This document shows, piece by piece, positions 35,900 to 51,015 of a stretch of 64,000 nucleotides of DNA (positions are counted from its first letter, which is position 1; every line of letters starts with the position of its first letter). The DNA lies in contig JAXDML010000010.1 in assembly GCA_034666125.1 (NCBI GenBank), positions 150,037 through 214,036 on the forward strand, read 5' to 3'. The translations under genes and the position numbers were made by a program. Source of the DNA: Candidatus Parcubacteria bacterium. GTDB taxonomy: Bacteria; Patescibacteriota; Minisyncoccia; Phycocordibacterales; Phycocordibacteraceae. Below the pieces are notes generated by a model that did no database searches, was not told the DNA's origin, and was given only the letters and a program-made list of their open reading frames with translations.

Positions 35900-36502
35900 A
35901 TGATCGCCGTGGACGTGGAAGCGACCGGAATCGACGCCGAACGGGCGTCGATCGTGTCGATAGGCGCCGTCGATCTCGACGACCCCGCGAACCAGTTCTA
36001 TGAGGAGTGCCGGGCATGGGACGGCGCGCATCTTTCCAATGAAGCCCTCGCCATCACCGGCTTCTCGAAGGACGAGATAGGGGAGGAGAGCGGCAAGCAA
36101 ACGGAGGGCGAGCTTGTCCGGAATTTCATCACCTGGGCCATGGACCGTCCGCAGACCCATACGTTCGTCGGACAGAACCCGCGCTTCGACAGCGACTTCA
36201 TCGCGGCGGCCTGCCGCCGCGCCGGCACGGAGTTCCCGTTCGCGTACCGCTCCATCGATACGCATACGCTTTGCTGGAACCATATCGTACAGAGAGGGGA
36301 GCAGCCGCCCGTGGCGAATAAGCGTTCCGCCATCAACCTCGACTATATCCTCCAGTACTGCGGGGTGCCAGCCGAACCGAAGCCTCACAACGCCCTCAAC
36401 GGCGCGTTATCCCATGCCGAGGTCTTCTTCCGCTTGGTCTATACTAAGAAAGTATTACCCGAGTTCCTTGAACATGACATTCCATGGATAAAGACGCAGT
36501 AG
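35900..36502 (+). CDS. DEDDh 3'-5' exonuclease (DnaQ/epsilon-like)
   Basis: Exo I (IAVDVEATG), Exo II (FVGQNPRFDSDF), and Exo III (HNALNGALSHAEVF) motifs. Confidence 0.75.
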   Translation: MIAVDVEATGIDAERASIVSIGAVDLDDPANQFYEECRAWDGAHLSNEALAITGFSKDEIGEESGKQTEGELVRNFITWAMDRPQTHTFVGQNPRFDSDFIAAACRRAGTEFPFAYRSIDTHTLCWNHIVQRGEQPPVANKRSAINLDYILQYCGVPAEPKPHNALNGALSHAEVFFRLVYTKKVLPEFLEHDIPWIKTQ

Positions 36503-37305
36503 GGCAGCAGCCGGCAGGCCCGAAGGAGCAGAGGGGCGGAACGACCGTACCGCCCGTACCGACCCCCGAGCACTCGAACACGCCCGAGCATCACGAGGCG
36601 ATGGGGCGGATCCTGTCGCAGACTATCGAGCGCGGGAAGCAGGAAGTGCCGGACAATCCGTCTCCGCTCGTCTGCAAGCCGCGGGAGCTCGAGAGCTGGC
36701 GCGTGTTCAAGATCATGTCCGAGTTTGTCGAGGGGTTCGAGCTCATCAGGAAATATGGGCTCGCGGTGAGCTTCTTCGGCACCGCGCGTGTGGGCTTCGA
36801 GGAGCATTTCTATAAGGAAGCGACCGACCTCGCCGGGAAGCTTGCGAAGGCCGGCTTCGCGGTCATCACGGGCGGGAGCTCCGGCGTCATGGAGGCGGCG
36901 AACAAGGGAGCGTTCGAAGCGGGCGGCGCATCCGTCGGTCTCAACATACGCCTCGACCAGAACCAGGGACTTAACACGTACCTCACCGACTCGTACACCT
37001 TCGAGCACTTCTTCGTACGGAAGGTCATGCTCGCCTTCGCCTCAGAGGTGTACGTCTTCTTCCCGGGTGGATACGGCACCATGGACGAGTTCTTCGAGAT
37101 AGTCACGCTCGTGCAGACGGGGAAAATACGGAAAGTCCCGATCGTCGTCTTCGGCAAGGAATACTGGGAACCGCTCATCGCCTTCATGCAGCTGAAGTTC
37201 CTCGAAGAGCACGCGGCCATCGACGCTCCCGATCTCGAGCTCTTTTTCGTGGCCGATACGGTGGATGAGGCGTATGAATTCATCACGAAGAACGTGCAGT
37301 GCTAG
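36484..37305 (+). CDS. LOG family protein (cytokinin riboside 5'-monophosphate phosphoribohydrolase-like, TIGR00730). The start is probably an internal ATG near 36598.
   Basis: GGSSGVMEAANKGA and PGGYGTMDEF LOG motifs. The ORF as called overlaps the exonuclease 3' end by 19 nt. Confidence 0.75.
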   Translation: MDKDAVGQQPAGPKEQRGGTTVPPVPTPEHSNTPEHHEAMGRILSQTIERGKQEVPDNPSPLVCKPRELESWRVFKIMSEFVEGFELIRKYGLAVSFFGTARVGFEEHFYKEATDLAGKLAKAGFAVITGGSSGVMEAANKGAFEAGGASVGLNIRLDQNQGLNTYLTDSYTFEHFFVRKVMLAFASEVYVFFPGGYGTMDEFFEIVTLVQTGKIRKVPIVVFGKEYWEPLIAFMQLKFLEEHAAIDAPDLELFFVADTVDEAYEFITKNVQC

Positions 37306-37345
37306 TCCGAGAGCAGAGAAAGGGAAGAGGAGAAAGCAGGATAAC

Positions 37346-37372
37346 GCAAAAACGCCCCGAGGGGCGTTTTTG
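37346..37372 (+). terminator. Rho-independent terminator after the LOG gene
   Basis: AAAAACGCCCC-gag-GGGCGTTTTTGC. Confidence 0.7.
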
Positions 37373-37624
37373 CTGATAGCCGGTTGATGTCTCATCCCGA
37401 TCGCGCCGGAGAGGGTTTACCGCATCTCTCCCGAAGGTTCGATGCAGGACCGGACTCCAACACTCGCTTACAAGACCCGGTTCTCAATCGATAGGCTGCT
37501 TTTGGCCGAAGCCTCGAACAGTTATCTACCGACCCTGCCCGAGGCCGAAGCCAAGGGCTAAGTTCGAGTATCGCGCCTGCCGCAAAACCCGGCAACTGTG
37601 GATACTGTTTATAAGGTGGGGACA

Positions 37625-37690
37625 AAAAATATAATAGGGAAAAGCCGTTTCTTCAACGCGGCTTGATATCCCAGGTTTGAAGAAGCGGCT
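37625..37690 (-). terminator. Long hairpin terminator downstream of the minus-strand gene 37692..37922
   Basis: AGCCGTTTCTTCAA...TTGAAGAAGCGGCT: a 13-bp stem with one mismatch. On the minus strand it is followed by TTTTCCCTATTATATTTTTTG. Confidence 0.5.
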
Positions 37691-37691
37691 T

Positions 37692-37922
37692 TCAACTCAG
37701 CCCGGGGATGTGCAGGTCCCCCTCCACGAAGAGCCAGAAAATGAGCCCGGCGACGACGACGATCAGCGATGTCTCGGGCCATGGCAACCCTATCCAATGG
37801 CAGATCAGCGCGATGAGGGCCAGAAGGATTAGTCCCCAGATGGTCGGGCCTAGACTGTTACCCCTCAACATGATGATCAGCGTCCAGATTGCGCACAACG
37901 CAAAGGGCAGGTACTGGGTCAC
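37692..37922 (-). CDS. Small membrane protein (2 TM)
   Basis: 76 aa, hydrophobic. Confidence 0.35.
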   Translation of the reverse strand: MTQYLPFALCAIWTLIIMLRGNSLGPTIWGLILLALIALICHWIGLPWPETSLIVVVAGLIFWLFVEGDLHIPGLS

Positions 37923-38118
37923 GGTGACCTCCTTTCGTTTCAGTACCCTATGACTGTACGACTTACAAAGTAGAGAGTCAATAGAGAAGAGAATCGTATC
38001 AAAAGGAAAAAACTATCACATTCAACAGGGAGGCAAAGAAGACGGATGGCCGTTTTCCTTACAATGGCGACACGTGACCATAGGCATGTCGAGTGGCGGG
38101 GAAAGGCCCGAACCGTAT

Positions 38119-38292
38119 TTATATCTGAGGCGGAGTCTTCTTCTTGCTCTTCACTACGCTGACGATGCCGATAATTACCACTACGAGTCCGAGCAACTGC
38201 GCTCCGGGACTATCATCGATTCCGCCGTATACGAACATGAATGCTCCGAAAGCTATCGCGAGAATGGAACATAGCAACCTTCCTTTATTCAT
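38119..38292 (-). CDS. Small membrane protein (57 aa, 2 TM), not in the supplied ORF track
   Basis: Manual translation: MNKGRLLCSILAIAFGAFMFVYGGIDDSPGAQLLGLVVVIIGIVSVVKSKKKTPPQI. Confidence 0.3.
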   Translation of the reverse strand: MNKGRLLCSILAIAFGAFMFVYGGIDDSPGAQLLGLVVVIIGIVSVVKSKKKTPPQI

Positions 38293-38433
38293 ATAAAGAT
38301 CCTACCAAATGGGGAAATAAAAGAAAAAGGGCCCGGTATTTACTCCGGGACAGGGAAGTATACAAAAGGAAAAGGCCATCTGGGGGGAGACGACCGATTC
38401 CTTTGGTCCTCTCCCGGCTGATGGCCTTGGGCG

Positions 38434-38676
38434 TCAGTCCTCCTTGGTCGACGCCGCCGCTTCGAGCCGCTGCGCCACGTGCTCGATGTAGAGCAGGATG
38501 GCGCAGAGCATGAAGCCCAGTGTGATGACGACGAGCACCGCACCCCCGCCGATCTTGATGAAGCTCTGGTTCGGCGACGCCAGGACGATGGTGGCGAAGA
38601 AGGCGAAGATCAGCGCCATGACGACGTAGGTCGCGCTATCTTTGGCACCCCTGGCAATTCTTTCCGACTTGGACAT
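38434..38676 (-). CDS. Small membrane protein (2 TM)
   Basis: 80 aa, with an N-terminal charged segment then two TM helices. Confidence 0.4.
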   Translation of the reverse strand: MSKSERIARGAKDSATYVVMALIFAFFATIVLASPNQSFIKIGGGAVLVVITLGFMLCAILLYIEHVAQRLEAAASTKED

Positions 38677-38773
38677 CTTTCTCTCCTTGAAACATCAGTG
38701 GATTCATAGGCAGATTGGCACATATAGCCTACTTTTGTCAATCCAGCAGGGAAGTCAGATCTATACTGGAGGG

Positions 38774-38947
38774 ATGGAGAGAAAATGCGATGGGTGCGGA
38801 AATGAGATGCGTAGGATCGGTTCTTTTGCTCGAACAAAACGAGAAGGAGAGCGCTCATTCAAGAGCGACGGCTCGGTGCAATACCAGTGTATCAACGAAG
38901 TTTGCTCTGAGTACGAGAAAGTAGTGACGATTCAGCCGGGGGAGTAA
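38774..38947 (+). CDS. Small zinc-ribbon protein
   Basis: MERKCDGCGNEM...CINEVCSEYEK: two CxxC pairs. It sits at the beginning of the low-GC island. Confidence 0.35.
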   Translation: MERKCDGCGNEMRRIGSFARTKREGERSFKSDGSVQYQCINEVCSEYEKVVTIQPGE

Positions 38948-39517
38948 CCGGGTTGCGCGAAGTGGGGTTAATTCTTTGTTTCTAGAAGAGGGCATAGACT
39001 TGGACGACTCAAAGAAGTCTTGAGGAAAACTTGAGAACCTCTTCTGTAGGGTAGGGGAGTCCCCGGCACTTAGATCGGGGACGTGAGTAACTGCAGATTA
39101 CCGCTATGACGAAGGTAAAAGCGTGGCATTCGGCCAGGGAGACTGACCGTCAGGTATACCACGACAACGATGCGTGCACAGAAGGGAACAACATTGAAGA
39201 GAAGTACCGCCGGGAAGGTACTGACAATCGTCCTCAATGTGACCACTGTAGACGCCTCAGTTAAGGGTTTGTAGCGGAGTCTGCCCGGACGTAGCATCCC
39301 TGATACTTCTTCGGGAGGTCTGGGTGATCGCTCCTCTGGCACTCCCCGTGCAACCAGAACCATCGTCCCGTCTTGTCTTCGTCGGCAGCCGGGACGATGG
39401 TCTTTTGTATTACTGAGAGCTCGTAGTGAAGTCCGTCGTGTATGTAGGTGTCATCCTCTTCGGCCTCCGTCTTAGCCGCGCAGTAGATTTGACCGTTTTT
39501 TCGTATCCGTAGAGCCA

Positions 39518-39541
39518 TAGGGTAGGGAAGTCAGGTATAAT
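39518..39541 (+). promoter_or_regulatory. Island promoter motif copy 1: TAGGGTAGGGAAG-N5-TATAAT, followed by an ORF-free structured region
   Basis: Direct read. Nothing codes for >1 kb downstream. Confidence 0.45.
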
Positions 39542-39762
39542 GGGGGTGTAAGGTCAAGTCGAGCAAAGTTTAGTAAAGTCGAGTTAAGCAGATGAACTAT
39601 GGGCCTCGTGCCCTGCCCTCGCTTGCGAGGAAAAAGAGACCTTAGACCTGGGAACCTAGATCAGTAACATGGCTCCGCGCTCCAAAAGTCCACGCGCGTG
39701 GCAGGGAAGAGTTCGTTTGTCGTTACTGACCTAATCACTCCCAGGTCTAAACTCTATTTAAG

Positions 39763-39844
39763 TACAACGCACAATATCTGGATCAAATATTTCTGTCTTT
39801 TGTCAAGGCTTTGGGGCTCATTATTGAAAAGTGGGGAGACCCTT
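39763..39844 (+). repeat. 82-bp direct repeat, copy A (partner at 42953..43035)
   Basis: ACAACGCACAATATCTGGATCAAATATTTCTGTCTTTTGTCAAGGCTTTGGGGCTCATTATTGAAAAGTGGGGAGACCCTTA. Differs from copy B by 1 substitution and 1 indel. Confidence 0.9.
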
Positions 39845-40109
39845 AGAACGATCTAGGGGAGGCTCGGCAAGAAGAGAAATATGTTGTAGTTTGGACGCGA
39901 AAATCGTCCACAAGTTGTCCACTTAGGGTCGCGCTTGCGTCAAAATAGCCTCGGGTTAGGATACTTGGAGGAGAGTGGTTACCTTCCTTTTCCACTCCTC
40001 TGAAACGGTCAGTCCGGCCTTTTTATCAGACAACTACTAGCTCGCGGGCTCTAAATCCCAGAAAGGGGTTATTTTTCGTCCTTGTGCGTTCAGAACTTTG
40101 AAAACTTGA

Positions 40110-40214
40110 GTATTGAAGTGTGCCCCGACCGGGAATCGAACCCGGATCATTTCCTGAGAGAGGGAACGCCCTTTCGGGTGGAGTTTTCTAGACTCTTGCT
40201 CTATCCATTGAGCT
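40110..40214 (-). tRNA. tRNA-like gene with a ~34-nt insertion between anticodon stem and T-arm (apparent anticodon AGA); possible intron-containing or degenerate tRNA
   Basis: On the minus strand: perfect 7-bp acceptor (GCCCCGA/TCGGGGC), canonical D-arm (GCTC-AATGGATA-GAGC), anticodon stem-loop AGAGT-CTAGAAA-ACTCC, and a perfect T-arm (CCGGG-TTCGATT-CCCGG). A 34-nt segment with two hairpins (CCC-GAAA-GGG and TTCC...GGAA) sits where the 4-5 nt variable loop should be. Confidence 0.45.
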
Positions 40215-40909
40215 ATCGGGGCACGCTTCAGTACTCAAGATGCTTATGAGATGGGCAGTAGGTCGAAACCTTTTCGGCACACTGCCCAGCCCGTAAGGAC
40301 TGGGTAAATCTCTGGCGAGATTTAGGAAAGGGATCGGGTATTACCTGGTCCTTTTTCCGTTATCATTTCGCTCGCGGATGGTAGTGTCGGGGAACTTGTC
40401 GTTCACCCATTCACGGACATACCTTCCGGTCTTGGCGCTGCGATAAGAGTAGGGAATAAGCCTAGTCGTTAGTCGCGTCTAAACACCCGCATTGTCACTG
40501 CGGGGCCACTTTTCTCGGGAGACCGACCTCCGTCGCCTGCCGCTACGTATCGGCGGGGTATAGTGAGAAACGACACTTGTATCCGATACAAATAGAACCC
40601 ATCCCGACATCTGGCGTAGGCGCTCTCCCTTTCGGGTATCACGCCATACTGGCGAGTGGTCTCTTGAAACCTACGCCAGATGTCGAAACAGGTTCTCTGT
40701 TTCGGGAGAGCATATGAGGGGGACCAACCCCTGTTTATGAAAGTACCGCCCAGCGATTGAGCGTAGCTTTAGTATAACCGAACCGCGCCAAGCTCGTCTT
40801 GGGGATAGGGGTCGCTCCGAAACAGTCCGGCTATAAGGCAAGGGCAAATTGAGCGCTCCTTCTTGGTCCAGGTATTGTGCGATACAGCGATATAAACCGA
40901 GAAGGGAAG

Positions 40910-41125
40910 TTAACCTTTCAGTTTCTTCAGAGCGGCCTTCATGATTTTCTTACGTCCTTCACTCGGGCTGATCTCACGTGCCGCTTCGAAAAGGGCTTCT
41001 TTAGAGGCTTTCTTGGTCGCTTCCGCGAGCTTCGCCAGTTGCTTCACCGCGAAGTCAACCTCCCACTTCTGCTTAAAGGCTATAAGGTTGCGGTCTTCTT
41101 TCACTTTCTTTGGGTCGTCGGCCAT
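40910..41125 (-). CDS. Small basic lysine-rich protein (module 1)
   Basis: 71 aa, MADDPKKVKEDRNLIAFKQKW.. Preceded on its strand by the conserved CAGAGTCCGTATTTGGC motif and TATACT immediately before the ATG. Confidence 0.4.
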   Translation of the reverse strand: MADDPKKVKEDRNLIAFKQKWEVDFAVKQLAKLAEATKKASKEALFEAAREISPSEGRKKIMKAALKKLKG

Positions 41126-41142
41126 AAGTATAGAGTTACTAA

Positions 41143-41177
41143 TACCCCTTAACCCTATCAGAGTCCGTATTTGGCGG
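41143..41177. repeat. Island repeat family 2, copy 1 (CTAYCAGAGTCCGTATTTGGC-GGGGAGGG)
   Basis: Direct read. Partner at 44046..44080. Confidence 0.8.
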
Positions 41178-41189
41178 GGGAGGGTAGTC

Positions 41190-41567
41190 CTACTTTCCCT
41201 GAAGCTTCTTGAGCTCTTTAGTGAGCTTTTCTATCTGTTTCAGGAGCTCGTCGATTCGCTTCTGGTTCTTAGAGACGGCGGGACCGTTCGCCTTACACTC
41301 GCCCCCTTTGGTTAGGTAGTAGCCTGCGTTGCAACTGAACTTACAAGTGCTTTTGGCGGTTATGAGAACGGTCGCGTTCTTGGGAGCACTCTTCGTACAG
41401 GCTTTGAGGGCCTTGTTCTCGCAAGATCTGAGCTCGATCTTCTGACTCGCGGTCGGATTCGGTCCGAACGAAGTACGCATCGATGCGCAGCTGGAAGTGT
41501 TAAATGCCGCGTGTGCAGGCACCGACAAAAGAAATACAGCAATTAGCCCTATAAGGGTCTTTTTCAT
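41190..41567 (-). CDS. Secreted Cys-rich protein with C-terminal coiled-coil (paralog of 44659..45027)
   Basis: Signal peptide MKKTLIGLIAVFLLSVPAHAA, 10 Cys, and a C-terminal KRIDELLKQIEKLTKELKKLQGK. Confidence 0.5.
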   Translation of the reverse strand: MKKTLIGLIAVFLLSVPAHAAFNTSSCASMRTSFGPNPTASQKIELRSCENKALKACTKSAPKNATVLITAKSTCKFSCNAGYYLTKGGECKANGPAVSKNQKRIDELLKQIEKLTKELKKLQGK

Positions 41568-41736
41568 AGTGGAAGGTTTAAGTGTCTAAACGGTGCACCG
41601 CCCGAGGGTATCCCGGAAACCTTCCACGGAAACCGGGACCTGAACTCAGCCGGTGCATTGGTGGAAGGTTATATGTGGCCCTCTAGGGTACTGAACCTCA
41701 GTATACAACGGCTCCTTTTGAGGAAACAACGGGTCG

Positions 41737-41760
41737 TGGGGTAGGGGAGGCCTTATACTT
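41737..41760 (+). promoter_or_regulatory. Island promoter motif copy 2: TGGGGTAGGGGAG-N5-TATACT, 5 nt before the ATG at 41766
   Basis: Direct read. Confidence 0.45.
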
Positions 41761-41765
41761 TGGGG

Positions 41766-42614
41766 ATGGTCGATTTCCTATATAACTGGCAGACCCTGCT
41801 GGGCTCTTTGCTGGGAGCAGGCGTCCCATTGTCTTTACTGCTCGTCGGTAGGTTTTATTTTCAGAGACGGGATCACTTACGATCTCTGCATAAATTTGTG
41901 CTCCTTGCGAGCAATAACCTGATTGAGATAGATAGAACCGTTAGGGAGTTCAGGGACATTCGTATCGAGAAGCTCCTCTCAGACCTGGCGCGGGACCTGG
42001 AGGCGAACGAACCAAAATTCGTGGTGCCAATGGCGTATTTTCCACTTCAATCAGTCTTACGTTTACCAGACGACCTAATTAATCAGTCCACTGAAAGTGG
42101 GTATGTTGACACATGGGGACTCGAAGTTCTCTCGAAGTCCCGCGATCTTGAGAAGATAATGGACGACCTCCAGAGACAGTTCGAAGCGACTCTGGCTATG
42201 AATAAGGAATTAACTTTCTTGCTGTCGAATAAAATTGACGAAAAGGATAGAGAAGCCGCCCTAAGGCATTCGAGAGGCCTTATTTCCAGTCTGCGCCAAC
42301 AAATTACAGATTACGCAATCGTTCTCGAAAGAGACTTCTTTGGAAAGAACGTGCCTATCTATCTAAAGAGTCTCGCCACAACGTTGGCGGTCATAGATGA
42401 ATACAACCGAATTGGTTATATGTCTTGGAAATGGAAGTTCCGGATAGGCTTTAAGTGCTACAGAAATAAGGAATCGTATTTGCATGCAAAGGCCAACATC
42501 ATGAAAAAGATCGATCTTTACCTAAAAGAGAAAGTAGACGCAAAAATTGCCAGTACATTAGAACTGCTTACGCAGAGTCAATCGACATCTGTAGTGGTCC
42601 GTCAGGAGAGCTGA
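41766..42614 (+). CDS. Hypothetical protein with N-terminal TM helix
   Basis: The ORF as called starts at TTG 41760; first ATG at 41766 (MVDFLYNWQTLLGSLLGAGVPLSLLLVG..). Helical, with no family recognised. Confidence 0.5.
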   Translation: MVDFLYNWQTLLGSLLGAGVPLSLLLVGRFYFQRRDHLRSLHKFVLLASNNLIEIDRTVREFRDIRIEKLLSDLARDLEANEPKFVVPMAYFPLQSVLRLPDDLINQSTESGYVDTWGLEVLSKSRDLEKIMDDLQRQFEATLAMNKELTFLLSNKIDEKDREAALRHSRGLISSLRQQITDYAIVLERDFFGKNVPIYLKSLATTLAVIDEYNRIGYMSWKWKFRIGFKCYRNKESYLHAKANIMKKIDLYLKEKVDAKIASTLELLTQSQSTSVVVRQES

Positions 42615-42952
42615 TAGTCCAAATAGTGCTCGGGTAATGTCTGACCAAAAGGGCAGGGGAGTCAGCCTTAGACACCCCTAAAGGCTGATCTTCTTCTTTT
42701 TTGTTCATAGGGTAGGGAAGTCAGGGTGTGAGCCCTGAAAAGCCAGCCTGATTTTGCTACTATTCTCGTGGGGTAGGGAGACAAGTCCCTACCCCAGTCA
42801 GTTACGGCCATAGAGGGGACCCAGATTCATGGACATCCTCGAACTGATCCTTATCTACCTGATTCTTAAAAAGATCCTGTAGAGAAGGGAGTACGGACCG
42901 CGTTACAAGCGCGGTTTCTGCTTTCGGGCTGGCTTTTGAAGGTTCAAATCAA

Positions 42953-43035
42953 ACAACGCACAATATCTGGAACAAATATTTCTGTCTTTTGTCAAGGCTT
43001 TGGGGCTCATTATTGAAAAGTGGGGAAGACCCTTA
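42953..43035 (+). repeat. 83-bp direct repeat, copy B; overlaps the 5' end of ORF 43000..43530
   Basis: Near-identical to 39763..39844. Confidence 0.9.
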
Positions 43036-43530
43036 AAGCAATTCGAAGCAGCCTCGCCGAAAACAGAAGTGTGTTCTAGTTTGACGCATCTTCAGCGAAG
43101 ATTTAGGCTTAATGTTACAAACTTGAAGAACACCAAGAAAAAGAAGGTCCGGACAAGACCACATACCCGTACTGATGTGATTTCAGACACGGAAAGGCTG
43201 GAGATCCACTACTGGACCTTAGGAAGTAGGGTGACTAGATTTGCTGTTTGCTACTGCTGCGAGATCGACGGGGAATGGGTGAGTATCACTTGGTGTGATG
43301 ACGCGCATCTCGAAAAAGGAAGGTATGTCGGCAAAGGCCGAAAAGGGCATTGCCACAGTTTCTCGGCCCAGGGTGGCAAACTTGTAGAAAACGAGTATCT
43401 TTTAGGTCTGGGGACTCCGGCTGAGCATCTGACTGAGGTTCTGAATAATTTCAAGAAGAATCACGAGCAAATACGGGCTCAGTATATGAAGGCTGTGGAG
43501 AAAGCCGCTAGACAGGCAAAGAATAGGTAA
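43000..43530 (+). CDS. Hypothetical Cys/His-rich protein (start uncertain; ORF as called begins at TTG inside the repeat)
   Basis: VCYCCEIDGEWVSITWCDDAHLEKGRYVGKGRKGHCHSF suggests metal binding. The lysine-rich N-terminus may not be translated. Confidence 0.4.
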   Translation: MGLIIEKWGRPLKQFEAASPKTEVCSSLTHLQRRFRLNVTNLKNTKKKKVRTRPHTRTDVISDTERLEIHYWTLGSRVTRFAVCYCCEIDGEWVSITWCDDAHLEKGRYVGKGRKGHCHSFSAQGGKLVENEYLLGLGTPAEHLTEVLNNFKKNHEQIRAQYMKAVEKAARQAKNR

Positions 43531-43540
43531 GAATATAGAT

Positions 43541-43801
43541 ATGGCTGCTACTAACAAAAGGATCGTAAGAAAGAATCTGACCTGCTCAGTGGCTTTTAAC
43601 GAATACTTAATCAAGAACTCTGGTAAGAGAATCCTGCCTAATGGAGCAACCGTAGTTTTTAGTGATACGAGAGACGCCGCCTTTTCGGCTGCGAATAGAT
43701 TACTTTGTAATAGCATAGTCAGAAGTGGGGAAAGTTGCTACATAGCAGAAAAAAGCGGCAGGTCTTGGAATGTAGATAGAATATCTCCGGTCAGCAGATA
43801 G
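43541..43801 (+). CDS. Hypothetical protein
   Basis: 86 aa with no motifs. Confidence 0.3.
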   Translation: MAATNKRIVRKNLTCSVAFNEYLIKNSGKRILPNGATVVFSDTRDAAFSAANRLLCNSIVRSGESCYIAEKSGRSWNVDRISPVSR

Positions 43802-43860
43802 AGGTAGTTGTCTAAACAGAAAAGCCGCCCTACGGCGGTTCTTTTCTTGGAGGAGGGGAG

Positions 43861-44013
43861 TTACTTCTTCCCGCGAGGCTTGTTGGCTGCGTTATCAAGA
43901 GCAACTGCCGCTAACGTCTTCACTTGGGCACTTGTTGGCTTGATCGCACCACTGAGAACCTTCGAAGCCAGGGTCGCATTCTTCGAGGAGGTCACGTCAT
44001 CTTTCTTTGCCAT
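43861..44013 (-). CDS. Small basic lysine-rich protein (module 2; 50 aa, not in ORF track)
   Basis: Manual translation MAKKDDVTSSKNATLASKVLSGAIKPTSAQVKTLAAVALDNAANKPRGKK. Preceded by repeat family 2, copy 2. Confidence 0.3.
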   Translation of the reverse strand: MAKKDDVTSSKNATLASKVLSGAIKPTSAQVKTLAAVALDNAANKPRGKK

Positions 44014-44045
44014 AACTGTAGTGGTTAACTAATAATCTCCTATAA

Positions 44046-44080
44046 CTCTACCAGAGTCCGTATTTGGCCAGGGGAGGGGA
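44046..44080. repeat. Island repeat family 2, copy 2
   Basis: CTACCAGAGTCCGTATTTGGCCAGGGGAGGGG. Confidence 0.8.
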
Positions 44081-44089
44081 TAACGGGAG

Positions 44090-44674
44090 TTAGTCGTCTC
44101 CAATCCTCCCGGCAGTTAATCTGCTTAACTCTGCCTTCCATTTCGCCCGGGCAGCTGCATTGGCTGATACTGTGACCGATATATCGCTTGGTATCGGGTC
44201 GGCATCCATCTTCTGTATTTCGGGGTTCGAGATCCTCTCGCTAAGAGGCGAGTAACTGCTCAGTAACTCGTTTGTGCCGAGGTTCTGTATGAAGTAACTT
44301 GTCTCAGTAATCCAACTGCGCTCCCCAGTACTCATCACTTGGAACGAGTCTTCTGTAGTGCTGTATCCGCCCACACACTCTTTGAGTTCAGGACTGAACC
44401 CGACAAGGAAACTACTCATGTCCATACGAACGACCATTCTCTCTGGGTACCCGTTTGTTATGGCTTTCTGGCTATAGAAGTCCTGGATCCCAGCCGTACG
44501 CTCACGGAATGCGTCTAGTTTCTGAGAACAGTCTTTCGAGTCGGCACTGCCTAACGTCTTTGGAGTCGAACTGCCAATGGCGTAAACCGTAATTGCAAAA
44601 ATCAAGAGGACGACACACGCGCCCAGGGCGAATCCCTCAAAGGAGATTTTCCTCATAGCTAGAAGGAGCCACAA
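44090..44674 (-). CDS. Membrane-anchored/secreted hypothetical protein
   Basis: Probable start at MRKISFEGFALGACVVLLIFAITVYA (signal anchor). No family. Confidence 0.45.
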   Translation of the reverse strand: MWLLLAMRKISFEGFALGACVVLLIFAITVYAIGSSTPKTLGSADSKDCSQKLDAFRERTAGIQDFYSQKAITNGYPERMVVRMDMSSFLVGFSPELKECVGGYSTTEDSFQVMSTGERSWITETSYFIQNLGTNELLSSYSPLSERISNPEIQKMDADPIPSDISVTVSANAAARAKWKAELSRLTAGRIGDD

Positions 44675-45027
44675 GCCTGTACCATACCGTTAGATAGGTA
44701 GCTGCATACGGACGTCTGGGTCCCCAATTGCTTGTCGATCTCCTGTATCTCTTTCGCCGCAGCGTTCCTCTGCTGTGCGGTTACCTTCATATTCCGGTTC
44801 AGTTTGACGAGCTCCGCTTTGCGCCGCTCAAGCTTCTCAGTCTTAGCCGAGGTCTTAACTGGGGTCTTTTTGTCGATCTGAACGACCGACCTTCCTTCAA
44901 GAGCAGAGACACGTTTCTCAAGGGCCAGGAGCCTTGAAGCGAGAGAACCGATAGAGTCAGGGGCTGCGTACGTGAAGGCGGGCACGATCAGGACGCCCAG
45001 AACGAAGCCCGCAAGGGTCTTTTTCAT
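44659..45027 (-). CDS. Secreted coiled-coil protein with C-terminal Cys pair (paralog of 41190..41567, domains in the opposite order)
   Basis: Start at MKKTLAGFVLGVLIVPAFTYA (signal peptide), coiled-coil LASRLLALEKRVSALEGR.., and C-terminal ..VCSYLSNGMVQACGSF. The upstream extension of the ORF as called is rejected. Confidence 0.45.
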   Translation of the reverse strand: MKKTLAGFVLGVLIVPAFTYAAPDSIGSLASRLLALEKRVSALEGRSVVQIDKKTPVKTSAKTEKLERRKAELVKLNRNMKVTAQQRNAAAKEIQEIDKQLGTQTSVCSYLSNGMVQACGSF

Positions 45028-45260
45028 AGGGAAGTTTGCGTGAGGTTTCGTGGAATAAACGCACCGCCCAAGGATGGAATCTCCGAGCAAACTTCCCAGA
45101 AAGCCGGAGACCCCAAGGAACTTGGGCGGTGCGGTCGGGAAGTTTGCTGCTATGGGTGGTGTCACTACCACGATACAACAGGGCAGACCCCTTGTAAATA
45201 CTAGCCTGGGGACACATTTCACGTCCCTAAAGTTTTTCTAAAGGCGTTATCAACTGGAAA

Positions 45261-45284
45261 TAGGGCAGGGAAGTGTGGTATAAT
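45261..45284 (+). promoter_or_regulatory. Island promoter motif copy 3: TAGGGCAGGGAAG-N5-TATAAT, 8 nt before the ATG at 45293
   Basis: Direct read. Confidence 0.45.
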
Positions 45285-45292
45285 GCAGAAGC

Positions 45293-45538
45293 ATGGACTT
45301 GAATAAACAAGAGAAAACCATGGCTGACGTGATACTCGTGTCCTACAATCCAGCGTTTTTCATGCTTGGAATGCAGCACGGGGAATCAGTCTCGGTGTAC
45401 ACCACTACCCCAGAAGGGGCTAAGGCGTTCGCCGAGAACCTTACGAAGCGTGTGGCTGAGTACGAATCCACGATACGTAAGATTGATTCCTCGGGTCTAC
45501 AGTTAGGGACCGTGTCACCGATCCAGCCTCGCAAATAA
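45293..45538 (+). CDS. Hypothetical protein
   Basis: 81 aa with no motifs. Confidence 0.35.
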   Translation: MDLNKQEKTMADVILVSYNPAFFMLGMQHGESVSVYTTTPEGAKAFAENLTKRVAEYESTIRKIDSSGLQLGTVSPIQPRK

Positions 45539-45640
45539 AGCTTTTTGTTCCTGTTACTTTAGAGAGTCCTTCTTTCATATTTCTACATCGCACAATATCT
45601 GTTTTGCGTAATACAAATACGTAAAGCACGCAAAGGCAGA

Positions 45641-45826
45641 TTAGGACTTTGCCCTTGGAGAGAGACTCTCAAGTAGTTTAGTGACTTGACTTACCATCTG
45701 TTCAACGACTGAACGCTTCATATGGAAGCTTGTAACGCGTCCTTGTTTGTTATGAAGATGAAGAAGTATCTCATCTTCAGCCTCCCTAACGTCCATTTTG
45801 ATATCTATGATAGGCAAGTTTTCCAT
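45641..45826 (-). CDS. Hypothetical small protein
   Basis: 61 aa. Confidence 0.25.
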   Translation of the reverse strand: MENLPIIDIKMDVREAEDEILLHLHNKQGRVTSFHMKRSVVEQMVSQVTKLLESLSPRAKS

Positions 45827-45995
45827 AGATCCATTATACTCGTTTATCCGAGATATGGCTCACTTATTGGTTTCTTTAGTACCAAGACCTACTCAACTTA
45901 TATGAAGAGCTGTGCGGGTCTTGAAGACTGCCAATAGGTGTTGGACTTCCGGTGAAGAATGAGACTAGTTTCTGAAGATTCCAAGGCTCCAGCTA

Positions 45996-46607
45996 TCAAG
46001 TAAGGGGTTGCGACTCCCCTACCTTCAAATTTGGAAGGAATGTGTTGAAAATAGAAAGCCTAAAACTATCTGAGAAATGCTTCCATTCTTCCATTAAGGA
46101 TCGGAGAGTCTCGAAGCCCGCTTTTATAAGAAGCTGGTCTCTCTCGTCGTCAGGATTCTTGCCACCGTGAAAGAGGTTATTTCGTATTGAATGCCAGAAC
46201 TCAATCATATTTCTCCAGTCTTCCAGATTACGAATCCTTCCCTGTTGGTCACAAAAATGACTTTCCTGGTCCTGTACGTTCTGACAGTCACAATCCCAGT
46301 ACCAGATCGCATGAACATCGTCCGTATTTTTGTCGAGCTCGCCCAAGGGACGTTCATCCAGCTCATTTTTAATAGACTGCCAAGACTGCTGAAGATGGTT
46401 ATCCCTAGCAACTAAGTCAAGGTACATATTTCGCACCTCTGCATCGTATTTAAGAGCTCGAATTGCGCTTGAGTCTGTCACTCTGTTTGTAAACTTAATT
46501 CGCTTCAAATATGCAATAAATGCCAGGTACTCGAAAACATACTTTGAAAAGTAGTCCTCACTACCGGCCTGGGCGTGCCAACTTCTTATTAATTGTTCGA
46601 AGTCCAT
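45996..46607 (-). CDS. Hypothetical protein with HEPN-type Rx4H motif (candidate RNase), third gene of a compact 3-gene operon
   Basis: WHSIRNNLFHGGK contains R-N-x3-H, as in HEPN catalytic motifs. 203 aa, helical. Starts 9 nt after the stop of the 4-TM gene. Confidence 0.45.
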   Translation of the reverse strand: MDFEQLIRSWHAQAGSEDYFSKYVFEYLAFIAYLKRIKFTNRVTDSSAIRALKYDAEVRNMYLDLVARDNHLQQSWQSIKNELDERPLGELDKNTDDVHAIWYWDCDCQNVQDQESHFCDQQGRIRNLEDWRNMIEFWHSIRNNLFHGGKNPDDERDQLLIKAGFETLRSLMEEWKHFSDSFRLSIFNTFLPNLKVGESQPLT

Positions 46608-46616
46608 TAGCAGTCT

Positions 46617-47066
46617 CTACTTAATTGATAGGTTAAAGATTCTCCTTGTAATCCAAATACAGCGTCCAGTTTTTATAATAACTAAAAAAACAATGGCCAA
46701 GAACATGAACATTTCTACCTTCGGAGATGCGTCTATGTTTAGTACCTCTCTTAGGATCAGAATAATAACTCCAAAGGATATCCAAAAAAGTGCGTTTACA
46801 ATTATATCCATTACAGTTCGAAACGACTTTGTCTTTTTGAAATAAACTAATTTTTCACTGTCGTTAAAAGAGAAAATTATAGCCATGAAAGCCATAACAA
46901 ACCCCAAGAGTCCAATCAGTGACTCAGTCATATTAAGTAAAAACTCGTTGCTTAACGAGGAAGACAAATTGAAACGGAATAAGAAATACGTTATTCCACC
47001 CGCGCATAGAAAAGTGAGTAAGGTATCTATAGGCTGAAAGAATTTTTGATACCAATTCTTTAACAT
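46617..47066 (-). CDS. Small 4-TM membrane protein (middle gene of the 3-gene operon)
   Basis: 149 aa with four hydrophobic helices. ~33% GC. Starts 3 nt after the stop of the upstream 306-aa gene. Confidence 0.55.
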   Translation of the reverse strand: MLKNWYQKFFQPIDTLLTFLCAGGITYFLFRFNLSSSLSNEFLLNMTESLIGLLGFVMAFMAIIFSFNDSEKLVYFKKTKSFRTVMDIIVNALFWISFGVIILILREVLNIDASPKVEMFMFLAIVFLVIIKTGRCIWITRRIFNLSIK

Positions 47067-47069
47067 ATT

Positions 47070-47990
47070 TTATTCACCTATAATACTTAGAAGATCGCCC
47101 CGCTTCTTTTTGTAGGCAGCGCAGATATTTTCGAACATATCTTTCGGGTCAACTTCTCGAGCGTTGTTTAATTTAGTAGTTCTAACTTCGTACACCATTT
47201 TGTCTTTGAGGAGGTCAAAGTCTTGAATTTTTTGTGTCTGAGAGTCCCAGGCTTTGATATTAAAACGATCAAATTGCTCACCGGGGTAGAAACGTCCCAC
47301 ATACCCCTTTAAGTTTTTAAGGAATGTCTTTCGTTCAGTGCCCTTAAGAATCGGCTTCCTGCCGTTCTTTTTTGGTCTTAGTACTAGTTCGATTTCTTCC
47401 AAATCTCCAAAGGAAGACGCAGTCCTGAGGGATGAATAAAGATTCGAGTCCAGATTTTTTATACTGTCGACGTGATTCTTATGTACCATTAGGGAGATTG
47501 ATGTAATATCTCCCATTCTACTAATTTGTCGGAGCGCGTCCTTATTAAATAGAATATTAAAGTATAAGAAAAGTGGATTCTTTACTCCAATATTTACGTT
47601 CTCCATCTTTTCGTTCAGATACTTAGCAAGTGTGCCAATGCGCGGTCCATAAAAGTTATATTCCATAGCTACGATGCCCTTCTCAGGGAAATACACAAAG
47701 TGTGTAGGTATGACCAGACCCTCGCTATCTTTAAGTTTTAGGGGATGAACTTTTGTGTCGTCAACCGACGCGACAGAAGGAAAGTCACTACCTCTCCATT
47801 CGTATAAACTTCCGTAAATTACCCCCTTGCCCGTGTCTTTTACGGTGCAGAATATCTTTCTGTCCCTCTCTCTTTCCCAGAAGATATCTTTTTGATCCAG
47901 TGAACTTAATTCTTTAACAACGTCAACAAAAGTGCCGTTCATAACAGCCGATCGGTAGAAGTAGACCTGTCGCACAACAGTTTCCTTCAT
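47070..47990 (-). CDS. Hypothetical 306-aa cytoplasmic protein (first gene of the 3-gene operon), unknown function
   Basis: No TM and no confidently recognisable catalytic motif. A weak GS..DD nucleotidyltransferase-like pattern (YGSLYEWRGSDFPSVASVDD) does not fit the canonical spacing. Lowest GC in the window. Confidence 0.5.
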   Translation of the reverse strand: MKETVVRQVYFYRSAVMNGTFVDVVKELSSLDQKDIFWERERDRKIFCTVKDTGKGVIYGSLYEWRGSDFPSVASVDDTKVHPLKLKDSEGLVIPTHFVYFPEKGIVAMEYNFYGPRIGTLAKYLNEKMENVNIGVKNPLFLYFNILFNKDALRQISRMGDITSISLMVHKNHVDSIKNLDSNLYSSLRTASSFGDLEEIELVLRPKKNGRKPILKGTERKTFLKNLKGYVGRFYPGEQFDRFNIKAWDSQTQKIQDFDLLKDKMVYEVRTTKLNNAREVDPKDMFENICAAYKKKRGDLLSIIGE

Positions 47991-48315
47991 GAGGCCTTCA
48001 TTTTACCACCAGGGTGAATCTTGTACAGACGGACCCAATGTCAAGCCTTTAAAAGGCTTGTGAGCTCCTTTCGCTTTGATAGAAACTTTGCTTCTATATT
48101 TCCGTGACTGATTTCAAAACACGTTAGGATCTACTTGACCTAAACTAGGCTGTTTGGCCTGGCGTGGTCTAAAAACGCGACAAACATAGAAAACCCGTCA
48201 TCAGGGCGTTTGTCGCGTTATAGGGGTAAACTCCTATAGGGGCTTCGGCCCTACTGGTGGCGGGTTTTGTGTTTGCCCACCTCCCCGCCCCGTCTTACTT
48301 CCCTAGTAAACGAAC

Positions 48316-48798
48316 ATGGCACAAGAAACTACTGTTACTGAAGACACTAAGGTCTGTCCGAAATGTGCGACAAATATCCCCAAGCAAGCAATACGCTGCC
48401 CTAACTGTAGGAGCAAGATAGGAACCTCGAGACTTGGAAAGCTTCTTGCGATCTTCTTCGGGCTCTTCATTGTCATGATGGTCATCTCAGTTCAAAGTGC
48501 CACCCCTACCCCACGAGTCCCTGGACCTGAGACGGAACCGGGCTGGGCTGACTCTGCCGCAGGAAAACTTTGTTCCAAGCACCCTGACTGGCAACCGGAA
48601 GAATGCGTTAAGGTTGCTGGAAAGAAGATCTGGATCGGTATGGACTACGATATGCTCGTATATCAATACGGAAAGCCAGATTCTATAAACCCTTCTAACT
48701 ATGGAGGCGGAACAAGATACCAATACTGTTGGCATGATTACTCCCCTTCTTGCTTTTATGACGAGAATGGGGATAACAAGATAGACGCTTATAACTAA
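48316..48798 (+). CDS. Zinc-ribbon / TM / extracytoplasmic domain protein
   Basis: CPKC...CPNC zinc ribbon, one TM (LLAIFFGLFIVMMVISV), and a C-terminal Cys-containing domain. Confidence 0.5.
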   Translation: MAQETTVTEDTKVCPKCATNIPKQAIRCPNCRSKIGTSRLGKLLAIFFGLFIVMMVISVQSATPTPRVPGPETEPGWADSAAGKLCSKHPDWQPEECVKVAGKKIWIGMDYDMLVYQYGKPDSINPSNYGGGTRYQYCWHDYSPSCFYDENGDNKIDAYN

Positions 48799-50019: not shown

Positions 50020-51015
50020 CTAGGGCGTGTGATTCATGGGTAACCGAAATTCACCCATATCCTCCCCTATCTGATACTGAGTGGCAGAAATAACCTTTAA
50101 GTCCCCCAAATCGAGCATTTTGTGATGGTTAGGACATAGCACGAGCATATTTGATGGGAGGTCTGCACCAGGAAGTCGTTTGGCAATTGGCACAATGTGG
50201 GCTACTTCAGAATAAAGGTTTCCGCTTCTCTGTCTGAAGGTAAATCCACAAATTTGGCATTCGTTTTTATACTTCTCCTTCATCCGACGAACGAGAGATA
50301 CGTTGCGCTTAATAACGGTCACCTTCCTGGCTACAGATTCAGGCACGTCATCCGCATGACGTTGCTGCCATTCGAGTAGCAGTGAATCCTCTTCCTTATC
50401 TCGTGTAAGCGCGTCGACCTCCGCGAGTTCACTTGCAGTGAGGTCTTCCTTCCCACTAATACTATCGAGCAAAGCCACGTCTTTTGCCTTAAGTCCAGGA
50501 GAGTATGCGTCGAAGAATGAATCTAGACTTCCGTAAGTTGCATAGATCCTGTCCAAAGCACCTTCACGTAGACTTACGAAACCCTGAACAACCATCTTGT
50601 CGTCATAGGCTCCTAATTCGCGGATAATCTCAAGAGGAAGCTGAATTGGCCGAAGTTCGTCGAGAAAGAATAGGTATTCCCAGGTTTCTTCTTTTTGCGG
50701 GATATTGCCCCACAGAGCTCTCGCGATCTCGGCGCTCTGCTTTTTCAATATACATTTACCCGTATACACAAAAACTCCTTTTGCGTAAAAAAGAACACTG
50801 TCACCCGGTTGCATTTGATCCCAATAGAAGCGCCTCCCTTCTCCACTTCCCCATATATAAAGCTGGTCTTGTACACCCAGAGCCTGCTCTTCCTCGGTCG
50901 AGAGATATTGATGTATATGGTCACGTGGGTAACCGCTGGCAAGCGTTGCAATAAAGTTTGCCTGCGATGTTTCGTTGCTCCGAGGAGCCAGGTATATCTT
51001 TGGACGTTCAGCCAT
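50020..51015 (-). CDS. HNH endonuclease with N-terminal PUA-like (EVE/ASCH-type) domain, candidate modification-dependent nuclease
   Basis: Start at MAERPKIY. HNH: CQICGFTF..SEVAHIVPIA..N.LVLCPNHHKMLD. N-terminal GDSVLFYAKGVFVYTGK-type PUA-like pattern (fold assignment is inference). Confidence 0.65.
   Translation of the reverse strand: MAERPKIYLAPRSNETSQANFIATLASGYPRDHIHQYLSTEEEQALGVQDQLYIWGSGEGRRFYWDQMQPGDSVLFYAKGVFVYTGKCILKKQSAEIARALWGNIPQKEETWEYLFFLDELRPIQLPLEIIRELGAYDDKMVVQGFVSLREGALDRIYATYGSLDSFFDAYSPGLKAKDVALLDSISGKEDLTASELAEVDALTRDKEEDSLLLEWQQRHADDVPESVARKVTVIKRNVSLVRRMKEKYKNECQICGFTFRQRSGNLYSEVAHIVPIAKRLPGADLPSNMLVLCPNHHKMLDLGDLKVISATQYQIGEDMGEFRLPMNHTP

Follow-up and report, generated by a model that had tools for sequence, protein, structure and literature searches.

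Introduction

The FtsK orienting polar sequences (KOPS) of Escherichia coli, Bacillus subtilis and Lactococcus lactis are the words GGGNAGGG, GAGAAGGG and GAAGAAG, respectively; their prediction has relied on a skew of no less than 90% around dif, a frequency of at least one copy per 40 kb and a top rank by skew, and they have distribution properties in common with Chi sites (PMC3384302). In Helicobacter pylori, the KOPS candidate AGTAGGGG clusters near difH, and the E. coli dif sequence itself is GGTGCGCATAATGTATATTATGTTAAAT (PMC3325230). The present study concerns a G-rich 13-mer, TAGGGYAGGGRAG, found in a 64,000-nucleotide stretch of a Candidatus Parcubacteria genome (contig JAXDML010000010.1, positions 150,037 to 214,036; hereafter, the window). 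The original prediction described this 13-mer as an island-specific motif placed just upstream of −10 boxes, and read it as a possible recognition element for a regulator or sigma factor. The motif itself had been observed largely correctly, and the prediction is partly confirmed overall. Our analysis reveals that the halves of the 13-mer are strand-polar about a dif-like palindrome. On balance, the 13-mer is probably a doubled KOPS-like word that points at a chromosomal dif-like site (45585-45612) at the replication terminus. In our literature searches, no account of dif or KOPS from the candidate phyla radiation (CPR) came up.

Strand polarity of the G-rich words about a dif-like palindrome

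The GC content of the window is ~60%, except for an island of 39-52% at ~37.3-51.3 kb. On the + strand of the window, TAGGGYAGGGRAG has four exact matches (39047, 39518, 42708 and 45261) vs 0.03 expected, and one-mismatch variants lie at 41737, 42649 and 42769; these numbers bear out the claim of a conserved, multi-copy motif. The core GGGYAGGGR is found 13 times in the window (1.7 expected), nine of them within 39-48.5 kb. The 13-mer decomposes into GGGYAGGG overlapping AGGGRAG, that is, into two copies of a shorter polar word. Since GGGYAGGG conforms to GGGNAGGG, the KOPS consensus of E. coli, strand polarity was tested about the one full palindrome of the window, site C, which is accompanied by two hybrids and one weak inverted copy:

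45585-45612, + strand: dif-like site C, ACATCGCACAA TATCTG TTTTGCGTAAT, 11-6-11 with inverted arms; pivot of the strand switch
39764-39791, + strand: hybrid dif-like site A, left arm as in C at 10/11 positions, same center, right arm GATCAAATATT
42953-42980, + strand: hybrid dif-like site B, left arm as in C at 10/11 positions, same center, right arm GAACAAATATT
40858-40885, − strand: possible weaker inverted dif-like copy, GTATCGCACAA TACCTG GACCAAGAAGG, 19/28 identical to site A in a by-eye count

The polarity counts covered the window together with a 7.8-kb extension (L057) and the loci L009, L046, L051, L054 and L055, 134.6 kb in total. L009, from Patescibacteria isolate P6-10, was found by a pattern scan of genome contigs, and its flanks are syntenic with the window. 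L046, L047, L051, L054 and L055/L056 were found through homologues (77-87% identity) of the LOG-family (TIGR00730) protein encoded at 36484-37305, which is NCBI QOE22_686 on a 252,821-bp contig of a Candidatus Parcubacteria metagenome-assembled genome (MAG). The counts for AGGGRAG on either side of the palindrome were as follows:

Window plus extension: left of 45589, 29 on + and 0 on −; right, 2 on + and 16 on −
L009: left, 2 on + and 0 on −; right, 0 on + and 4 on −
L046: left, 11 on + and 0 on −; right, 0 on + and 2 on −
L051: left, 15 on + and 3 on −; right, 0 on + and 2 on −
L054: left, 11 on + and 2 on −; right, 0 on + and 2 on −
L055: left, 7 on + and 1 on −; right, 0 on + and 2 on −

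Summed over the five relatives, AGGGRAG stands at 46:6 (+:−) left of the palindrome and at 0:12 right of it, and Fisher p values for the switch are 1e-10 in the window, 6e-9 in the relatives and 3e-18 overall. Over the 134.6 kb, 103 copies point toward the site and 8 away (93%); the window with its extension contributes 45 and 2. Among all 16,384 heptamers, AGGGAAG (59:6) and AGGGGAG (44:2) rank first and second by skew, vs a skew of only 61% for the all-purine heptamers pooled. Counting the core only, AGGGRAG is found at +14/−0 to the left and +2/−6 to the right, and between 64 and 71.8 kb five copies point toward the site and none away. The KOPS word GGGNAGGG follows the same course across the six genomes, with 42:11 (+:−) on the left and 1:6 on the right (48 toward, 12 away), and no other arrangement of six G, one A and one N is as common. 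The last + strand copy of AGGGRAG in the window lies at 45267 and the first − strand copy at 46020, bracketing site C. The switch interval holds the palindrome in 6/6 genomes, and it is narrowest, at 247-281 nt, in L009 and L055.

The strand of the motif is set by its position relative to the dif-like site, not by gene starts. Left of the site, ~10.8 kb of − strand coding sequence has zero − strand copies of AGGGRAG, and no − strand copies occur left of the pivot though at least seven − strand genes lie there. Right of 45.6 kb, copies are on the − strand even where this places them antisense inside + strand genes. In genes oriented counter to the word, eight antisense copies point toward the site vs one sense copy pointing away (binomial p = 0.04, small sample). 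The in-gene copies of the core mostly occupy one frame, NNA-GGG-RAG, and do not lie at Shine-Dalgarno distance. Because copies are antisense in counter-oriented genes, coding bias does not explain the skew. Gene-strand bias also flips at the island, genes to the left favoring the + strand by 2.2:1 and 23 of 27 genes to the right running toward the site, and the cumulative GC skew has its maximum at 44-46 kb.

AGGGRAG is spread over the entire window, including the high-GC core; its density is ~1.8 per kb in the left island and one copy per 2.7 kb in the left part of the core (1-37300, hereafter core-left), and the density of the half-words rises toward the pivot at 45.6 kb. In core-left, GGGNAGGG is observed 10 times on the + strand vs 3.2-4.4 expected under Markov models of order 1-3. 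Absence from the high-GC core, as had been claimed, is thus true of the full 13-mer and untrue of its halves. The 13-mer looks island-specific and the halves do not because the whole 13-mer fits only non-coding DNA, which is plentiful in the island. Occurrence throughout the genome regardless of gene starts, which the original prediction had named as speaking against its own reading, is what we find for the half-words.

Comparison with KOPS and dif

GGGYAGGG falls within the consensus GGGNAGGG that serves E. coli, Vibrio cholerae and Pseudomonas aeruginosa, and the word of the window also resembles the B. subtilis SpoIIIE recognition sequence (SRS) GAGAAGGG and the H. pylori candidate AGTAGGGG. 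Like KOPS and other architecture imparting sequences (AIMS), it has a skew of at least 90%, inverts at the dif-like site, is over-represented, becomes denser near the site and occurs at least once per 40 kb. Being G-rich, with this skew, inversion at dif, over-representation and rising frequency, the word agrees with the published KOPS properties (PMC3384302), and the 13-mer is therefore read as a doubled KOPS-like word. It differs from described KOPS in that the best-skewed unit is the heptamer AGGGRAG(T), often doubled into the 13-mer; furthermore, each dif-like site has a double copy at ~250 bp, −10 boxes directly adjoin several copies, and the host belongs to the CPR.

The palindrome shares with dif/XerCD sites the 11-6-11 layout, imperfect inverted arms, an AT-rich center, an intergenic location and a place at the flip of both polarity and gene strand. 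Its left arm, TCGCACAA, resembles the XerC arm GCGCATAA. In contrast, its right arm (TTTTGCG) mirrors the left arm and does not resemble TTATGTTAAAT, and the overall match to E. coli dif is 16-19/28; a single-recombinase or divergent Xer system would be expected to have such a mirrored right arm. The two arms of site C agree at 7/11 positions, and those of the L009 site (AGTGCGCACAA/TATATC/TTTTGCGCACT) at 10/11 in a manual count. The L009 site, AGTGCGCACAATATATCTTTTGCGCACT, agrees with E. coli dif at 19/28 positions, ranking first among the hits in its locus. The conserved string TCGCACAATAT(A/C)T... starts at 39768, 42957 and 45589 in the window, and at L051 12727, L054 8336, L055 4099, L046 10142 and L009 4160. 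The palindrome is kept in six genomes between non-homologous flanks. Sites A and B depart from C in the right arm, which reads GA(T/A)CAAATATT.

These likenesses suggest a scheme in which the word, along the chromosome arm, would point toward the 28-bp palindrome, read as the dif of this clade at the terminus. By analogy with KOPS, it may orient the FtsK translocase toward dif when the cell divides, and the double word GGGTAGGGAAG would be bound by the FtsK gamma domain. The putative Xer recombinase(s) would resolve chromosome dimers at the dif-like site. Since neither gene is in the fetched DNA, we infer these roles of FtsK and Xer. The low-GC island would be the terminus region, gathering integrase-less modules that enter by Xer recombination; such entry would leave the hybrid sites A and B, with the modules keeping the word in the permissive orientation.

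Several findings weigh against this KOPS-like reading. At ~1.8 per kb, the word is locally ~10-fold denser than known KOPS, which occur at ~1 per 10-16 kb in E. coli and B. subtilis. The model does not demand conservation extended over 13 nt, does not require the near-constant distance of 244-264 nt between the double motif and the site, and does not predict the 15-fold enrichment beside −10 boxes, both of which are described below. The same strand switch would be expected from polar sites of the Chi and Ter types. GC skew right of the site is ~0 and not clearly negative. The sites other than that of L009 match E. coli dif at 16-17/28, which is noise level for most of them, the L046 site being the top hit in its locus. 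Finally, the window and the fetched loci yielded no tyrosine-recombinase (Xer) motif and no FtsK gene.

If the KOPS-like reading is true, sequence alone would have sufficed to locate, on a Parcubacteria (CPR) chromosome, the replication terminus, the site of dimer resolution and the word that guides FtsK, and GGGNAGGG-type KOPS would be common to Proteobacteria and a very distant reduced-genome lineage. Besides, integrase-less Xer-dependent modules would be a route of gene gain in CPR genomes. The polarity of AGGGRAG offers a simple rule to orient and check CPR MAG contigs and to spot misassemblies or inversions. The case also calls for caution, as an apparent island-specific promoter box can be a chromosome-architecture signal.

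Motif copies, hairpins and −10 boxes

The individual copies of the motif and its halves in the window are:

38748-38767, + strand: half motif AGGGAAG, then 7 nt and TATACT (38762-38767), 6 nt before ATG 38774
39047-39059, + strand: double motif TAGGGTAGGGGAG, with a hairpin (39059-39082) directly after it; 47 nt upstream of a 52-aa open reading frame (ORF) at 39106
39518-39541, + strand: double motif TAGGGTAGGGAAG, then 5 nt and TATAAT (39536-39541)
41737-41759, + strand: variant TGGGGTAGGGGAG, then 4 nt and TATACT (41754-41759), 6 nt before ATG 41766
42649-42661, + strand: variant AAGGGCAGGGGAG, with the 282-aa gene's terminator-like hairpin and T-run just 3′ of it
42708-42720, + strand: double motif without a −10 box, within 42706-42725, an exact 20-nt duplicate of 39516-39535
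42769-42796, + strand: variant motif in a perfect 10-11 bp hairpin, GGGGTAGGGA-gacaag-TCCCTACCCC
45261-45284, + strand: double motif TAGGGCAGGGAAG, then 5 nt and a TG-extended TATAAT (45279-45284); ATG 45293 of an 81-aa ORF; final + strand copy ahead of the switch
46014-46020, − strand: AGGGGAG, first − strand copy right of the pivot
46237-46243, 48298-48304, 48504-48511 (GGGTAGGG), 48741-48747 and 50062-50068, − strand: further copies, continuing beyond these in the core to 69.7 kb
1-37300, + strand: high-GC core-left, with AGGGRAG 14 on + and 0 on −, and GGGNAGGG 10:1; copies mostly within coding sequence, three of them antisense in − strand genes

Embedding in hairpins, claimed for three of these copies, holds at 42769, which lies inside a stem (z = −5.3), and fails at 39047 and 42708, where the hairpin starts just 3′ of the motif; a hairpin likewise begins directly 3′ of the copy at 42649. 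The 3′ arm of the 42769 hairpin is the only GGGYAGGG on the wrong strand in that stretch. The proposed G-quadruplex potential was not confirmed: no + strand motif copy has four runs of three or more G at loops of up to 12 nt, and the sole island hit for this pattern is on the − strand, at 48303.

The spacing of exactly 5 nt between motif and box, reported three times, is right at 39518 and 45261, and at 41737 it is 4 nt. At the 45261 copy the ATG does follow TATAAT by 8 nt, as stated; at 41737, the gap from TATACT to the ATG is 6 nt instead of the stated 5 nt. The 282-aa orphan ORF from ATG 41766 is leaderless, as is the 57-aa zinc-ribbon ORF at 38774, whose half-copy promoter had been missed. 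The motif and TATAAT at 39518-39541 are followed by no ORF; they precede a structured RNA (39625-39765) and lie 248 nt left of site A.

The host is mostly leaderless and −10-only, with TATACT/TATAAT 6-9 nt before the ATG at ~25 genes and no common upstream box or recognizable −35. In 37310-45589, AGGGRAG ends 1-9 nt upstream of four of the five perfect + strand TATAAT/TATACT boxes, a co-location that 0 of 100,000 random placements reached. Two more cases occur in the relatives L009 and L051. The gap from motif to box is 4-5 nt at 39518, 41737, 45261 and in L009, 7 nt at 38748 and 1 nt in L051. Over the window and its relatives, six of the 103 polar copies precede a perfect −10 box vs 0.4 expected, a 15-fold enrichment; 97 do not stand beside one. 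Conversely, 6/52 perfect −10 boxes carry the word and 46/52 lack it, as do ~20 other leaderless promoters of the host, and on the − strand the word is absent from every promoter of a − strand island gene. The placement of four copies 4-7 nt upstream of the −10 boxes of leaderless genes is genuine, and we take it to be of secondary importance. Several host −10 boxes are followed by G-rich discriminators (TATAATGGGGG, TATACTTTGGGGATG).

Recognition of the G-rich box (approximately −30 to −18) by a regulator or alternative sigma factor, with control of a set of leaderless island genes through it, appears unlikely to us. This explanation, in essence that of the original prediction, gains from the four boxes in five and the 6/103 copies just described, from the leaderless state of the genes downstream, and from the same 13-mer serving in promoter spacers of Omnitrophota as a probable operator of the CsoR family. 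It loses from the 97 copies away from any −10 box, from a gap that varies over 1-7 nt (4-5 nt in the four full-motif cases), from the − strand promoters of the island that lack the word, and from a strand choice that tracks the palindrome and not gene orientation. The double copies ~250 nt from the dif-like sites of L054, L055 and L046, and the one at 42708 in the window, are also without a box. Pfam scans of 23 island ORFs detected no sigma factor, helix-turn-helix (HTH) protein or other regulator; HNH, SNase and DUF7718 scored above the cut-offs, and zinc-ribbon families, DUF5647 and MASE10 below them. No CsoR-like gene was found in the window. Of the proposed −35/spacer element for an element-encoded regulator or sigma factor, therefore, the co-location with −10 boxes remains, and the regulator and the dependence on gene starts do not. 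The 282-aa protein has no homologue except itself in a homologue search, and therefore promoter footprinting through its orthologues is impossible.

Since a G-rich spacer next to the −10 has been reported to promote transcription (PMC12641261), promoters may tolerate or exploit the word; a G-rich stretch beside the −10 that is tolerated or helpful in the promoter spacer is one possibility.

The Omnitrophota operators came to light when genome, viral and metagenome contigs were scanned for TAGGGYAGGGRAG-N5-TATAMT. The scan gave 13 genome, 5 viral and 25 metagenome hits, with a rough chance estimate of ~17 for the genome collection. The hits are mostly unrelated, including the Omnitrophota operators and two recurrent low-GC loci (one also in the MAG "bacterium ADurb.Bin212", the other from viral contigs); we consider L029 a hit by chance, and only L009 is a syntenic relative. 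On Omnitrophota contigs, as in the window, the identical 13-mer is followed by TATAAT/TATACT. There it sits exactly between TTGACA and TATAAT/TATACT (L001 2180-2203, L008 676-699, L028, L035 and L038), and in L001 and L008 a homologous 94-aa ORF lies downstream, whose L001 product matches PF02583 (CsoR/RcnR; E = 3e-24). In contrast to the window, where the copies are polar about a distant site, the Omnitrophota motif has TTGACA directly adjoining it and inverted ATA/TAT on either side of its G-tract. The Omnitrophota 13-mer is probably an unrelated lookalike, an autoregulatory operator.

Distance between the double motif and the dif-like sites

The double motif recurs in non-coding DNA of the relatives. 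Its distance to the dif-like site, which follows it on the same strand, is 248 nt for site A, 247 nt for site B (from the copy at 42708, which lies to its left), 255 nt in L051, 264 nt in L054, 263 nt in L055 and 244 nt in L046, and the intervening DNA is non-homologous. Unit C of the window has 326 nt, and in L009 a − strand copy lies ~215 nt away on the opposite side of the site. In L054 (8150-8175), L055 (3915-3940) and L046 (9975-9995), a shared block, TTTCGGGGAAGTGGT or CTTGGGGGAGTCC, stands ~100 nt after the double motif; it is either another toward-oriented G-rich word or part of an unrecognized RNA.

A combined explanation, which we hold to be rather improbable, would make the doubled word a dual-purpose module end: a strong FtsK-loading or Xer-accessory site ~250 bp from each dif-like site that moves with small integrase-less cassettes inserting at dif and, in several of them, is also the upstream half of a leaderless promoter reading toward the site. 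If so, a CPR lineage would possess an Xer-based cassette system into which a polarity signal is built.

It is also doubtful, and in our estimation decidedly so, that the double motif is an Xer accessory or module-boundary element, that is, a protein-binding accessory sequence of the cer/psi kind or the outer end of a cassette ~250 bp to one side of the site, with the short words a separate matter. Six units keep the motif-to-site distance within 244-264 nt despite the non-homologous DNA between, units A and B carry identical 20-mers with the motif, and these two share the left arm (10/11) and center of C, all of which argues for such an element. The distances in unit C and in L009 do not fit it, the units may be orthologous flanks with a drifted middle, and the polarity of the short words extends to places far from any site. 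We know of no Xer accessory protein for this lineage.

Other explanations of the polarity

A Chi-like site, in which the polar G-rich word would be a hotspot for a nuclease of the RecBCD/AddAB type and enriched on the leading strand, is very unlikely. Being skewed, over-represented and G-rich, with a polarity that follows the replichores, the word could pass for one; however, its density climbs sharply to the pivot and tandem or doubled copies flank this, which KOPS/AIMS fits better, and the sequence fits the KOPS consensus. The word matches no Chi sequence known to us.

We assign a comparably low probability to the view that the word has no dedicated function, its polarity arising from mutation that is biased by strand and from codon usage, and the island copies from duplication of promoter/terminator modules. 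The general skew of purine heptamers (61%), the preference of in-gene copies for one frame and the exact duplication of 39516-39535 at 42706-42725 are in keeping with this view. The 93% skew of AGGGRAG with the first two heptamer ranks, the 8:1 antisense excess in counter-oriented genes, the over-representation that survives expectations of Markov order 1-3 and the switch at the same palindrome in six genomes contradict it.

A replication fork trap, with the 13-mers as polar Ter-like sites for a terminator protein that admit forks to the terminus and block their exit, is extremely unlikely: the orientation is opposed on either side of the terminus and the copies cluster within ~7 kb of the pivot, but short words reach at least 45 kb from it, mostly in genes at ~1 per 2-3 kb, whereas known Ter sites are few and long, no candidate terminator protein was found, and we know of no resemblance of the word to Tus or RTP sites.

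Five further candidates were rejected. TAGGGT as itself a TAnnnT −10 box fails as the variants TAGGGC and TGGGGT lose key positions. A repeat resembling repetitive extragenic palindromes with their associated transposases (REP/RAYT), or a miniature inverted-repeat transposable element (MITE), does not agree with hairpins that differ in sequence from copy to copy, nor a DNA uptake sequence with strict strand polarity and single-locus clustering. Shine-Dalgarno or coding-sense bias is dismissed for copies that are off the Shine-Dalgarno distance and antisense in counter-oriented genes, and a −35 of the extracytoplasmic function (ECF) type (GGAAC-like) for wrong spacing.

The island as a proposed terminus region with candidate modules

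A 135-nt direct repeat (39764-39898 and 42953-43087; 74 nt at 99%, 85% overall) starts at the hybrid sites A and B. The second of the two copies runs across the start called for the DUF7718 ORF (43000-43530), the true start of which is probably further downstream than 43000. The pattern of sites A, B and C is what two related elements integrated in tandem at dif, at ~39.8-42.95 kb and 42.98-45.58 kb, would be expected to leave. The segments bounded by the direct dif-like sites measure 3.2 kb and 2.6 kb, and Pfam scans detected no integrase domain among the island ORFs. As cargo, they hold small orphan genes together with a DUF7718/DUF5647 pair and a toxin-like mini-ORF. The permissive orientation is common to every G-rich copy in them, the one exception being the 3′ arm of the 42769 hairpin.

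Integrative mobile elements exploiting Xer (IMEX) and plasmid dif (pdif) modules are similar in that segments lie between direct sites with a common center, a near-identical left arm and a differing right arm, and without an integrase. They differ in that the segments of the window hold no replication or phage genes and the array is seen in one genome only. In a JGI assembly (sample 3300044738), 37344-48451 forms a separate 11,108-bp contig and the neighboring contig ends at ~48.42 kb; these breaks at 37344 and ~48.4 kb hint at strain-level presence/absence or coverage differences of the segment.

Neighboring genes and structured RNAs

Within the segments, a 17-aa hydrophobic mini-ORF, MDILELILIYLILKKIL (42831-42884, + strand), has an SD-like (Shine-Dalgarno-like) GAGGGG and a terminator hairpin, and its region (42729-42946) is enclosed by a 23-nt long-range pairing of 42729-42751 with 42924-42946. 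We take this layout to be like that of type I toxin mRNAs such as hok. A tRNA-like gene (40121-40222, − strand) with a 31-nt insertion at the variable arm and the anticodon loop CUAGAAA scores 56.7 bits with the Rfam tRNA model and has no ARAGORN call; it sits in 1.1 kb of non-coding DNA that separates site A from the weak inverted copy. Two − strand genes, of 71 aa (41126-41200 region) and 50 aa (44014-44090 region), have in common ~65 nt of upstream sequence, CCCTCCCC.GCCAAATACGGACTCTG.TAG.GTTA..., and TAGGGTTAAGGGGTA, a degenerate relative of the motif, stands upstream of the 71-aa gene, 12 nt before TATACT.

The conserved long hairpin RNA at 39625-39765 (+ strand), which adjoins site A downstream of the motif and TATAAT at 39518-39541, recurs at L051 12583-12722 with the invariant loops CCAAAAGTCCACG...GTGGCAGGGAA and four compensatory pairs between the two genomes; it holds no ORF and has no Rfam match. 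A structured RNA of ~250 nt (37345-37630, − strand) is directly downstream of, and convergent with, the LOG-family gene. This RNA recurs at ~75% identity in L046 (8700-8990), L047 (11175-11470) and L051 (10860-11150), matches no Rfam family, and has 79 predicted pairs, nine of them compensatory, and a terminator of its own. Finally, 48137-48252 (+ strand) matches the Rfam LOOT RNA (RF03000) over its full length, at 70.2 bits vs 46.4 for the gathering score. This part of the low-GC DNA is to the right of the dif-like site, and a 160-aa ORF with zinc-ribbon and transmembrane (TM) features follows just downstream.

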